Sequence record: PQ571290 | Reading direction: 5' to 3' (one strand) | Source: Escherichia phage EF2-1 | DNA length: 42,599 nucleotides | Shown: in pieces, positions 23,079 to 25,718 of the stretch | Layout: every line of letters starts with the position of its first letter | Position numbering within the stretch: the first letter of the stretch is position 1 | The notes under the pieces: generated by a model | What the model saw: the letters and a program-made list of their open reading frames with translations, nothing else | Databases searched by the model: none | What the model was told of the DNA's origin: nothing | Position numbers and translations under genes: made by a program

Positions 23079-23101
23079 AAGGCCCCTTTCGGGGCCTTTT
23101 T
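23079..23101. terminator. bidirectional hairpin terminator
   Basis: AAGGCCCC-tttc-GGGGCCTT with T-runs on both strands; between convergent major tail gene and reverse cassette. Confidence 0.6.
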
Positions 23102-23102
23102 C

Positions 23103-23657
23103 TTACAAACCTAATTTTAAAGCAATGTCTATAACGTTCGATTTAACGTCACCCGGTATGATGTAGGTGTCGTAATCTTTTACACCACTAACATCGTACA
23201 GATAGCCACGGCTATCGCCGATGAACGTATAGCCGTCACGATGGAGGCGGACGATTCGCACGTCATGCCCCGCGGCGACGATAGGGGCAACTTCACTGGC
23301 GAATCCACCGTCGGACACTACAAAAACTTCGTCGCCGTCAGGCAAGTTTTCAGCAAGATACTTACCGAAATAATCATCGCCGAATACCGGTTTAATGAAT
23401 TGCTCAGAAATGGCAATCATTAACTGGCGGCGGGACAACCCATTAAGAAAACCCTCGGGTTTTTCTTTCCGCGCCCGGTCGTCGTAGCCGTCGAGAAATT
23501 CGTGGTAAGCATCCTGGCCTAACGCTGCCAAAGCAATATTGAACATTGGATTCTTGAAACTGGTAGTTCCTTTCGCAAAGCCCATTTCTACCAGCGCCAT
23601 AGCAAGCGTGTCTTTCCCGCAACCAGCAGGGCCATTAAGAATAATTACCTTAGCCAT
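23103..23657 (-). CDS. P-loop nucleotide/polynucleotide kinase-like protein
   Basis: 184 aa; Walker A ILNGPAGCGKDT at N-terminus; GGGAG RBS; TAATG overlap with upstream HAD gene. Confidence 0.6.
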   Translation of the reverse strand: MAKVIILNGPAGCGKDTLAMALVEMGFAKGTTSFKNPMFNIALAALGQDAYHEFLDGYDDRARKEKPEGFLNGLSRRQLMIAISEQFIKPVFGDDYFGKYLAENLPDGDEVFVVSDGGFASEVAPIVAAGHDVRIVRLHRDGYTFIGDSRGYLYDVSGVKDYDTYIIPGDVKSNVIDIALKLGL

Positions 23658-24145
23658 TATTTATCGCTCCCGTGTGGTTTTAAGTGTGTAGAGTTCCCGT
23701 TACAGTCGTATTCGGTAACTGCGTGTGCGGTTATGCCGAGGTCACGGAAATGCTTTATTACCGCTGGAGAGTCGTCGAACGCACACAAGATTCTTTCCAG
23801 TCCGAAAGCACGCAACACCTCTTCTTTAATTACGATGTCTTTTCTGTTGTCGTGTTTGCTGCGCATGATTAGCGTGTCAAACCTAACGTTATTCTCTCGT
23901 AACCATTCGCGAGTCTCCTCCTCAGCGTCATCACTTCGCCCGGTAAGGATAATTATAGTAAGTCCGGAATGCCACAGTACGCTACACAAATGGATATTGT
24001 CGTATATCGGAGCGTCATCTTTGCAGGCCATGTTAAATGGCTTCCACGCCCACGTTTCTCCGTAGTTATCTTTTGGTAACAGGTGTAAGCGATGGGTACC
24101 GTCGGCCAATGTCCCGTCTAAATCGAAAATTACAATATCTTTCAT
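23657..24145 (-). CDS. HAD-superfamily phosphatase (polynucleotide 3'-phosphatase / nucleotidase-like)
   Basis: 162 aa; motif I FDLDGTL, motif IV CAFDDS; ATGA overlap with upstream gene. Confidence 0.7.
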   Translation of the reverse strand: MKDIVIFDLDGTLADGTHRLHLLPKDNYGETWAWKPFNMACKDDAPIYDNIHLCSVLWHSGLTIIILTGRSDDAEEETREWLRENNVRFDTLIMRSKHDNRKDIVIKEEVLRAFGLERILCAFDDSPAVIKHFRDLGITAHAVTEYDCNGNSTHLKPHGSDK

Positions 24146-25278
24146 CCCAGCATCTCCGGTGAAATAGTTAAACGTGCTACCTCGCCATATTCGGCGCTAT
24201 AAGTAATTACATTTGCACTACGGCCCGACATCCAACCTCCGCGGGAGGCGTAGGCGTCTTTAGCCGCTAAGGTGCGGTGTTGCTCAACAATCATGTTACG
24301 GCTTTCTACAATCTTCTGGTGGTGCAGATGGCCTACGTGGGCGTAGCTGTAAACACTCTCGCCGAACGCTTTACGGAACTTGGCAATCATAACAGGTTCA
24401 ATAGCGTCGAATCGTGCTTTATGCCCGTGATGGAAGAACAGCGTCGTTTTGCCGTGTTGCACCATCTTGTAAACATCCGGTGACGTATCGACGAACACAC
24501 GCGGCTCATTGTCATACAGCGTACTGAACATCTCAGCCAACCAAATCATGCCACTTTCGTCGTGATTCCCTTGCACGATAAGCAAGCGAACATTTTTATG
24601 CTTAACCAGCGCCATATCGACAACACGGCGGACCATGCGAATCATGTAGCGGACAAGTTTCTGGTAACGGGTGTCGGCGTCAAGGGCGTGACCGCTTGCA
24701 GGTGTAACGGCAACCAGACTATCGAAGTGCGCGAAGTCGCCCAGCAGGTTAATAACCCCAGTCCCCGCATCCGGTGCTTTCTGGAATGCCGCATCGAACC
24801 AACGGGAGAACAGGTCTTCTGCAATCTTCATATCCCAGTCGTCGCCACTCTCGTCGGCCCAGGCCAGCATACCGAGATGGAAATCAGACACAGTGTAAAG
24901 GTTGAGTAGCTTGTCGTCCCGTTTGGTGCGAACGGCTTTAACAGGAGCAACGGGGGTAATCTCTGATTTCATGCCATTGATTACGGCTTGCATAGCCTCT
25001 AACTGTTTCTCTTTATCCGGCTCGGAAATAACCCACGTCATCACCTCTTCGCCATTAGCCTTTACGCAAGCAGATATTCTTTTAGCAGAGAACCCTTCCG
25101 CTATGCGTTTGGATATTACTGGGTCGTTCCCGTGGCCTATGCCCTTCTTGGCTAATCGGGCCTTACGGATACGAATAACGCGGTCTGAGATGCCGTATTT
25201 ACGGGCGATATCAATAATCTTTGTTCCAGCGTTCAATTCTTCCTGTAATTGTTCGTCGGTTATTTTCTTCTGGGCCAT
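24142..25278 (-). CDS. calcineurin-like metallophosphoesterase with N-terminal HTH domain
   Basis: 378 aa; motifs VSDFHLG, LLGDFAHFD, VQGNHDE, HHGH, GHLHH; N-terminal IIDIARKYGISDRVIRIRKARL HTH-like; GAGGAAG RBS. Confidence 0.7.
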   Translation of the reverse strand: MAQKKITDEQLQEELNAGTKIIDIARKYGISDRVIRIRKARLAKKGIGHGNDPVISKRIAEGFSAKRISACVKANGEEVMTWVISEPDKEKQLEAMQAVINGMKSEITPVAPVKAVRTKRDDKLLNLYTVSDFHLGMLAWADESGDDWDMKIAEDLFSRWFDAAFQKAPDAGTGVINLLGDFAHFDSLVAVTPASGHALDADTRYQKLVRYMIRMVRRVVDMALVKHKNVRLLIVQGNHDESGMIWLAEMFSTLYDNEPRVFVDTSPDVYKMVQHGKTTLFFHHGHKARFDAIEPVMIAKFRKAFGESVYSYAHVGHLHHQKIVESRNMIVEQHRTLAAKDAYASRGGWMSGRSANVITYSAEYGEVARLTISPEMLG

Positions 25279-25343
25279 GCTTACTTCCTCGTGTTTAGGA
25301 TTTGTCCTATTTAACCACAGTGCATTCCTTTAAATAAAGGCAA

Positions 25344-25670
25344 CTATTTACTTTCTGCACCTATCGCCCACCCTGTCATTACCATTTGCAGACGGGTGGC
25401 TGTCAGTAGGCTATAGAAAGCATCTCCGTTTTTCTCTACCGAACGTATCACTGTGTAGGTTACGGCCTGCGGGGGTAGGCCCGATTTACCAACCTCTACG
25501 GCTGCCTCACACTCGCGAACGGTAGAGTCCTTAAATGCCTTTACAATAGTAGGGTCGGCTCTATCAAGCACACCAGAAGTCATAAGAACGGATTCACTAA
25601 ACACCTGTTCACACGGAGACCCAAAAGTAGCAAAAGACATAAAACCAAGAGTTAACACTAATTTACGCAT
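25344..25670 (-). CDS. small secreted/periplasmic protein (signal peptide)
   Basis: 108 aa; N-terminal MRKLVLTLGFMSFATFG hydrophobic signal-like segment; GAGGAA RBS; first gene after minus-strand promoter. Confidence 0.5.
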   Translation of the reverse strand: MRKLVLTLGFMSFATFGSPCEQVFSESVLMTSGVLDRADPTIVKAFKDSTVRECEAAVEVGKSGLPPQAVTYTVIRSVEKNGDAFYSLLTATRLQMVMTGWAIGAESK

Positions 25671-25687
25671 AATTATTTCCTCAGTAA

Positions 25688-25718
25688 GTTACAGGTGAAT
25701 AGTACCCTATTATATTGG
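25688..25718. promoter_or_regulatory. divergent promoter/operator element (GTTACA-17-TATATT on plus; TATAAT on minus) with palindrome TGAATAG-N4-CTATTAT
   Basis: 25694-25718 nearly identical to 14174-14198; minus TATAAT is revcomp of 25709-25714. Confidence 0.55.

Follow-up and report, generated by a model that had tools for sequence, protein, structure and literature searches.

A reverse-oriented cassette in the tail operon of Escherichia phage EF2-1 encoding an HTH-metallophosphoesterase, a PNKP-type phosphatase and a T4 gp1-type kinase

Four minus-strand open reading frames (ORFs; 25670..23103) interrupt the tail operon of Escherichia phage EF2-1 (sequence record PQ571290), of which we analysed a stretch of 42,599 nucleotides (nt), referred to below as the window. 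The last three encode a metallophosphoesterase (MPE) with an N-terminal helix-turn-helix (HTH), a HAD phosphatase that stands alone and belongs to the PNKP 3'-phosphatase family, and a P-loop kinase of the T4 gp1 deoxynucleoside monophosphate (dNMP) kinase family. We tentatively favour reading the cassette as an early- or middle-regulated module that degrades host DNA and salvages dNMPs, preceded by a distinct gene for a small exported protein, in a conserved reverse-oriented accessory slot of the Guernseyvirinae under the phage's own sigma-70-type promoter/operator element. The trio is of an already annotated, biochemically uncharacterised kind, and a novel end-healing counter-defence is not supported.

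In the mechanism that we propose, the HTH-tethered, Mre11/SbcD-like MPE would bind DNA and degrade it, the host chromosome being the likeliest target; 3'-phosphates on DNA ends or on 3'-phosphorylated deoxynucleotides would be removed by the PNKP-type HAD protein; and the gp1-type kinase would convert the released 5'-dNMPs into deoxynucleoside diphosphates for phage DNA synthesis. We infer the substrates, the host-DNA target, the early or middle timing, and the participation of the three enzymes in one pathway. We prefer salvage because relatives of the kinase adjoin genes for dUTPase, ThyX, ribonucleotide reductase (RNR), NT5C nucleotidase and deoxyribosyltransferase-like proteins, because the MPE-HAD-kinase order recurs in Webervirus, in phage AAS23 and in Era103-like podoviruses, and because the nearest folds of the MPE are of the nuclease type, which may be likened to a mycobacteriophage MPE (gp48 of A10ZJ24) that degrades host DNA early in infection and is needed against host defences (PMC12287305). 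Salvage would also fit a phage whose DNA polymerase, helicase-primase and exonuclease are accompanied by no ligase and by no further enzyme of nucleotide metabolism.

The cassette and its three enzymes

The features of the cassette are as follows.

25344..25670, minus strand: first gene, 108 amino acids (aa), Sec-signal-like N-terminus (ORF call; phrog_14165)
24142..25278, minus strand: HTH-MPE, 378 aa (ORF call; phrog_704; domains and motifs)
23657..24145, minus strand: stand-alone HAD phosphatase of the PNKP 3'-phosphatase family, 162 aa (PF25109; phrog_415)
23103..23657, minus strand: P-loop kinase of the T4 gp1 dNMP-kinase family, 184 aa (phrog_139; AlphaFold2 model; Foldseek)
25699..25727, minus strand: cassette promoter TTGCAC-17-TACTAT (conserved columns; repeated core; overlaps the palindrome)
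25698..25711: operator-like palindrome AATAG-GGTA-CTATT, overlapping the cassette promoter
23079..23098, both strands: bidirectional intrinsic-terminator hairpin (terminator scan; folding energy)

The four ORFs run against the flanking late genes, which Pfam identifies on the plus strand as a tail tube protein (PF18906, E = 4e-37) and a tail assembly chaperone (PF08748; start codon at 25835). The original prediction, made from the sequence alone, had placed the four ORFs correctly and had named the right superfamilies (P-loop kinase, HAD, HTH plus calcineurin-like MPE, small exported protein). Its claim that the last three genes are translationally coupled also holds: the MPE gene ends and the HAD gene begins within ATGA (24145..24142), and TAATG (23659..23655) likewise joins the HAD stop to the kinase start. 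The 108-aa gene is separated by 65 nt from the MPE gene, which has its own GAGGA ribosome-binding site. Beyond the kinase gene, the proposed bidirectional terminator was confirmed by a scan of both strands as an 8-bp hairpin (6 GC) at 23079..23098 with a T run on both strands and a folding energy of -20.8 kcal/mol (z = -4.95 against shuffles), common to the convergent tail-tube (plus) and kinase (minus) genes. The GC content of the cassette (0.46-0.53) lies slightly under that of its flanks (0.49-0.56). We found the motifs GPAGCGKDT, DLDGT, FDDS, DFH, GNHD, GHLH and HHGH in the cassette proteins; one motif of the earlier list needs correction, the one given as GD-x-x-D being GDFAHFD (GD-x4-D).

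The kinase falls into phrog_139, "deoxynucleoside monophosphate kinase" (E = 7e-45), and only there among the PHROGs, as does T4 gp1 (E = 1.8e-65), with the same profile region (82-261) matched by both, whereas T4 Pnk falls into phrog_505 and phrog_2071. Since the initial homologue search yielded nothing but relatives of 86-98% identity, later runs started from diverse seed alignments. We turned to fold comparison since single-sequence and profile hidden Markov model searches against PDB sequences gave only P-loop matches for the kinase, without recovering 1DEK, and only HTH matches for the MPE. The AlphaFold2 model of the kinase, built on 121 diverse homologues (pLDDT, the model confidence score, 95.5), has T4 gp1 (1DEK) as its best solved-structure match in Foldseek (E = 9.5e-6, TM score 0.65), with adenylate kinases and further kinases of small molecules next in order; T4 Pnk (1LTQ) is not among the top 50 matches. 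In hhalign, R77, S84-E85, D116 and E122 pair with R132, T140-D141, D175 and E181 of gp1 in the gp1-family alignment, at a probability of 66%. Both proteins have the GKDT Walker A, and the invariant motifs D-R, R..[ST][DE] and D...E appear to be collinear in the two. They differ in overall identity (about 19%) and in length, gp1 having 241 aa and the window kinase 184 aa without the gp1 insertion. Alignment with T4 Pnk by hhalign and phmmer is confined to the P-loop. Some comparisons did not discriminate: the kinase profile aligned over the P-loop alone with either single sequence, T4 gp1 or T4 Pnk, in hhalign, on which the gp1-family alignment improved, global pairwise alignments with both were uninformative, and Pfam and NCBIfam gave sub-threshold P-loop matches only. 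By sequence family and predicted fold, then, the P-loop protein belongs with T4 gp1 dNMP kinase and not with T4 Pnk, with a correspondingly predicted substrate range. The choice between a Pnk-type kinase and a dNMP kinase, which the original prediction had proposed as a check, thus comes down on the dNMP-kinase side through phrog_139 and 1DEK.

The genomic surroundings of the kinase family point to deoxynucleotide metabolism. Its neighbours are an NT5C-type deoxyribonucleotidase, ThyX and RNR in a Vequintavirus, a DNA ligase and a dUTPase in Chaseviridae, and, in Vibrio phage AS51, a DNA ligase together with a nucleoside-2-deoxyribosyltransferase-like protein. The annotation of the related phage K-02 has no RNR, ThyA, dUTPase or ligase.

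The HAD protein is, judged by its sequence, a genuine stand-alone homologue of PNKP-type 3'-phosphatases. It matches PF25109 (HAD_PNKP) with 73 bits against a cutoff of 27.6 and phrog_415 with E = 3e-64, and its relatives in the PDB are Capnocytophaga Pnkp1 (4xrp) and T4 Pnk (1ltq, 5uj0). Residues D8, D10, R19, R70, D98, K102, D124 and D125 align with D165, D167, R176, R213, D254, K258, D277 and D278 of T4 Pnkp, which we take to be the residues essential for its 3'-phosphatase activity. Unlike the homologous phosphatase domain of T4 PseT and Capnocytophaga Pnkp1, the window phosphatase stands alone and is encoded upstream of the kinase rather than lying C-terminal to it; its partner is a gp1-type kinase instead of a Pnk-type one, and it has no ligase partner. 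Among its closest relatives outside Kagunavirus and Drexlerviridae is a stand-alone HAD protein of the T4-like Krischvirus GEC-3S (44% identity), the gene of which (3998..4474 in our contig) is translationally coupled to nrdB, overlapping its stop codon, in the nrdA-nrdB operon, with genuine pseT and rnlA genes encoded a few kilobases off. This arrangement argues that the stand-alone subfamily serves deoxynucleotide metabolism and is not a duplicate of Pnkp.

These assignments bear directly on the reading that the original prediction had put forward, in which a split PNKP-like system with 5'-kinase, 3'-phosphatase and 2',3'-cyclic phosphodiesterase activities would mend tRNA, RNA or DNA ends cut by defence nucleases, anticodon nucleases among them. 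We consider it decidedly improbable. The HAD protein does retain every residue essential in T4 Pnkp, the HAD-kinase pairing is strongly conserved, an ATP-dependent DNA ligase gene directly follows the trio in Era103-like podoviruses, and bacterial Pnkp of C. thermocellum combines a kinase with an MPE phosphatase. However, the kinase groups with the gp1 dNMP kinase and resembles Pnk at the P-loop only, and the MPE is Mre11/SbcD-like by fold rather than of the lambda-phosphatase (PPP) branch to which the C. thermocellum enzyme belongs; we rejected membership of the window MPE in that branch on this basis. The statement that the window holds no ligase was upheld by phmmer searches of its six-frame ORFs with Rnl1 and two phage DNA ligases, which found none, and none is annotated in K-02. 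E. coli RtcB joins 3'-phosphate or 2',3'-cyclic phosphate ends to 5'-OH ends, so RNA ends healed to 3'-OH and 5'-phosphate would be of no help without an Rnl-type ligase. Krischvirus, moreover, keeps its stand-alone HAD gene in the RNR operon besides pseT and rnlA. Finally, Kagunavirus isolates of the BASEL collection are highly sensitive to restriction-modification and variably so to Old, a sensitivity typical of small siphoviruses, and were not singled out as unusually immunity-resistant (PMC11990801).

The MPE consists of an N-terminal winged HTH (about residues 1-50), a beta-hairpin/helix linker (about 60-106) and an MPE core (about 121-378) with the motifs DFH, GDFAHFD, GNHD, HHGH and GHLH. 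It matches phrog_704, "DNA repair exonuclease", with E = 7.6e-158, and Pfam Metallophos matches stay under the cutoff. A model from 126 sequences (pLDDT 81) reproduces a three-helix N-terminal HTH, the linker and the core, and appears nearest in fold to Mre11 and SbcD; the MPE fold and the five metal-binding motifs are present in the window protein. The protein is therefore best described, as far as the model goes, as a putative DNA-binding MPE of the nuclease branch. Phosphodiesterases of the Rv0805, MJ0936, YfcE and GpdQ type also appear among the near-top fold matches and lend some colour to an anti-defence alternative, as does the accessory position beside an exclusion-type gene. In that alternative the MPE would act as an Rv0805- or CpdA-like cyclic (oligo)nucleotide phosphodiesterase, with the HAD protein and the kinase processing the products, and would degrade the signals of CBASS, Pycsar, type III CRISPR or Thoeris-type systems. 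We regard both the activity and these targets as highly improbable: the conserved N-terminal HTH points to DNA as the ligand, PADLOC gave no match for any cassette protein, and the contexts of the kinase and the HAD protein elsewhere are those of deoxynucleotide metabolism.

Several points weigh against host-DNA degradation and salvage. The support from hhalign for the kinship of the kinase with gp1 is moderate only (probability 66%). Since Mre11-type nucleases produce 3'-OH ends, the model does not account for the 3'-phosphates on which the HAD protein would act, and no SbcC/Rad50 partner is annotated. Jerseyvirus, Tunavirus, Dhillonvirus and other phages have the MPE but neither the HAD protein nor the kinase, frequently next to lysis genes, and the AAS23 phosphoesterase was detected in virions by mass spectrometry (PMC8004638); together these observations hint at an independent role of the MPE, and the salvage model does not explain them. 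Literature searches gave no functional study of the trio and no biochemical data for the three families in small siphoviruses, and the time classes of the sole Kagunavirus transcriptome are too coarse to place the cassette (PMC12645636).

Gene order in other phages and competing explanations

Sequence comparison identified the 3-kb cassette region as a Kagunavirus (Guernseyvirinae) match, with 90% identity over 96% of its length to Escherichia phage L AB-2017, 89% identity to K1H, and 95% identity over 80% of its length to BEU33 and BEU35; the HAD and kinase proteins of BEU33 are identical to those of the window. K1H has the four homologous genes in the corresponding place, flanked by the genes for the tail protein and the tail assembly chaperone. 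The reverse-oriented slot with its MPE is common to Guernseyvirinae, so a synteny comparison, suggested as a check of the cassette's accessory nature, gave a divided answer: the HAD-kinase pair has no counterpart in Jerseyvirus, while slot and MPE are widespread. Jerseyviruses have after the MPE an HNH endonuclease gene, a 76-aa ORF and an Ant-like gene; we rejected the 76-aa ORF as a kinase remnant on comparison. Close copies (at least 80% identity) are uneven in number, about 52-56 phage records for the HAD protein and kinase and about 310 for the MPE.

We then took a census of gene order at 80 kinase-centred loci from IMG/VR. At 67 loci the kinase gene has the HAD gene upstream of it on the same strand, at the remaining 13 it occurs without HAD, and a phrog_704 MPE gene directly precedes the pair at 21. 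Webervirus has the identical MPE-HAD-kinase order beside lysis genes, and Era103-like podoviruses (two contigs, about 4216..7533) have contiguous genes for MPE, HAD, kinase and ATP-dependent DNA ligase. At eight further podovirus loci the ligase gene directly follows the kinase gene, without HAD or phrog_704 MPE. In the Drexlerviridae trio (gp38-40 of Pantoea phage AAS23, gp06-08 of Klebsiella phage KPN N141) and in Erwinia phage Era103, the same three families stand in the same order, with 42-48% identity to the window for the MPE, about 56% for the HAD protein and 41-51% for the kinase. They lie in the early/replication region or beside lysis genes, whereas the window trio sits inside the tail operon, and Era103-like phages have the DNA ligase in addition. 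Aeromonas phage Ahp1 has an HTH-MPE of another family, phrog_221, before HAD and kinase, and in AS51 a phrog_221 MPE precedes the deoxyribosyltransferase-like gene and the kinase; hhalign found no link between the window MPE family and these two MPEs. This comparison indicates that HAD-then-kinase is a tight unit and that the upstream MPE is a recurrent, looser partner.

A plausible alternative explanation for such a pattern is that the slot between tail-tube and chaperone genes is a recombination hotspot gathering independent accessory genes with no shared pathway: an exclusion protein, an MPE with its own late or virion-associated role, a nucleotidase and a dNMP kinase. Two unrelated alleles are known for the first gene, the Jerseyvirus slot continues with other genes after the MPE, and in Tunavirus IME18, Dhillonvirus welsh, RcJoli and Vibrio 99E28-2 a phrog_704 HTH-MPE stands alone beside holin/endolysin genes; in Webervirus it lies near such genes together with its partners. 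T1-like phages have the MPE about 15 kb from the kinase, and the 13 loci with a kinase and no HAD gene fit independent acquisition as well. We nevertheless judge it unlikely, as the MPE-HAD-kinase order is found in at least three unrelated phage lineages, stop and start codons overlap in the window, an MPE of another family takes the same position in Ahp1 and AS51, and most kinase loci keep HAD-then-kinase. As for the claim that all four genes form one system, it did not stand, the first gene being swappable (108-aa or Imm) and the MPE occurring alone in many phages.

The trio could also be a dedicated three-enzyme system with DNA and not free nucleotides as its substrate, either shredding the host chromosome early and so silencing defence genes, or cleaning the 3'-phosphate/5'-OH breaks that host nucleases make in phage DNA, for resealing by a ligase of host or phage. 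We hold this to be improbable. The first variant is suggested by likeness to mycobacteriophage gp48. The second would mean that a kinase of the gp1 fold had been recruited to polynucleotide ends; the PNKP-type phosphatase, together with the DNA ligase after the trio in Era103-like phages, makes DNA end-cleaning a minority possibility.

The suggestion of an undescribed functional system was overstated. The trio is already annotated in hundreds of genomes of Drexlerviridae, Kagunavirus and Autographiviridae, and gp38-40 of Sauletekiovirus AAS23, in the same MPE-HAD-kinase order, were assigned to nucleotide metabolism (PMC8004638). The public names of homologues are inconsistent and often wrong: the phosphatase-only protein is labelled "polynucleotide kinase", the kinase "replication factor C large subunit" or "GTP-binding protein Era", and the MPE "DNA polymerase II small subunit", "transcriptional regulator" or "serine/threonine phosphatase"; "DNA repair exonuclease" is a further label in use besides those for the phosphatase. 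A functional assignment would correct many of these labels. Well over a thousand phages with known sequences have the trio, among them therapeutic isolates of Kagunavirus, Drexlerviridae and Klebsiella Webervirus. If host-DNA degradation and salvage proved true, it would explain the dNTP supply of small siphoviruses without RNR, ThyA and dUTPase genes, and the trio would be a widespread substitute for T7 gp1.7, T4 gp1 and T5 Dnk.

Promoter, palindrome and regulon

The cassette was predicted to have its own promoter/operator element, recognised by a minus-strand TATAAT. The element is real and a perfect TATAAT is present (25714..25709), but it lies within the spacer of the conserved promoter, the hexamers of which are TTGCAC (25727..25722) and, after 17 nt, TACTAT (25704..25699). 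The columns CTTGCA and TA.TAT are invariant in five Kagunavirus and Jerseyvirus sequences. Our promoter scanner missed this promoter, as its -35 hexamer fits only three of six positions. A 34-nt core of the promoter is found four times in the window, at 4444 (plus), 6035 (plus), 14207 (minus) and 25727 (minus), each copy being followed 25-40 nt further on by a Shine-Dalgarno sequence and a start codon.

The palindrome AATAG-N4-CTATT has seven copies in the window (850..863, 4460..4473, 6051..6064, 14178..14191, 25698..25711, 37507..37520 and 41061..41074) against 0.01 expected by chance, and its sites are conserved in K1H and K-02. Every copy lies inside a promoter-like element of one of two layouts. 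Four sites have TTGCAC-17-TACTAT; at the other three (850, 37507 and 41061) the palindrome occupies the spacer of TTGAC[AGT]-17-TATAGT, near-consensus promoters upstream of minus-strand replication genes. The palindrome thus looks like the operator of a phage-encoded regulator, as far as its sequence and placement tell. The 34-nt core of the cassette promoter also occurs in two promoters of the early region, and its palindrome in three promoters of replication genes; this recurrence and conservation argue that the cassette is wired into the phage's own promoter/operator regulon and is no self-contained foreign insertion. The accessory status previously assigned to the cassette stands for the HAD-kinase pair, which Jerseyviruses lack. 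The common promoter/operator palindrome offers a handle on the temporal programme of Guernseyvirinae.

A second embedded reverse-strand gene (13867..14151, minus; 94 aa; phrog_1273) lies between the portal and head-morphogenesis genes, and its promoter (14179..14207, minus) is a near-identical copy of the cassette promoter.

The exported first gene and the conserved spacer

The 108-aa protein is probably an envelope-acting exclusion or host-interaction factor. Its N-terminus MRKLVLTLGFMSFATFG|SP is Sec-signal-like as read from the sequence only, and it contains two Cys residues. It belongs to phrog_14165, a PHROG of unknown function, has no Pfam, NCBIfam or PADLOC match, and was found by tblastn in only 98 records, all Guernseyvirinae. 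In S104, KE04 and K-02 an Imm-type superinfection-immunity gene occupies its exact position, and many Kagunavirus and Jerseyvirus genomes likewise have the Imm-type gene in the first slot instead. We considered and rejected membership of the 108-aa protein in the Imm family (PF14373): Pfam gave no match, its PHROG is phrog_14165, and position alone is in common. It has no sequence similarity to T4 Imm-type proteins, and its product is predicted to be exported and soluble, whereas Imm is a membrane protein. The 108-aa gene is thus a swappable first cistron that probably has no share in the enzyme pathway.

Conservation of the 164-nt spacer that separates the cassette from the chaperone gene goes far beyond what a promoter alone would need. 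A plus-strand promoter-like site, GTTACA-17-TATATT (25688..25716), stands face to face with the cassette promoter on the same palindrome, and could restart transcription of the chaperone/tape-measure operon past the cassette and its bidirectional terminator. Downstream of it lies one further feature.

25749..25793, plus strand: three-helix RNA-like structure (folding, covariation, Rfam score)

An outer 5-bp stem, GCGCC/GGCGC, encloses two hairpins. We assessed covariation with 17 distinct sequences from 51 copies (50 Guernseyvirinae contigs and the window, a single copy per contig): 99.2% of cells pair, three pairs have double-sided (compensatory) changes, the score is reached by none of 500 shuffles, slid controls collapse, and the G-U pairs fit the plus strand only. 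Against the int-alpA RNA of Rfam (RF02996) the element scores 27.7 bits, under the gathering threshold of 35.8 (E = 3e-4 over 151 nt), and the two have the same three helices and identical junctions, CUAG, CGAAAAG and CCUG. If the GTTACA-17-TATATT site is used, this would be an int-alpA-like element in the leader of the chaperone/tape-measure operon.

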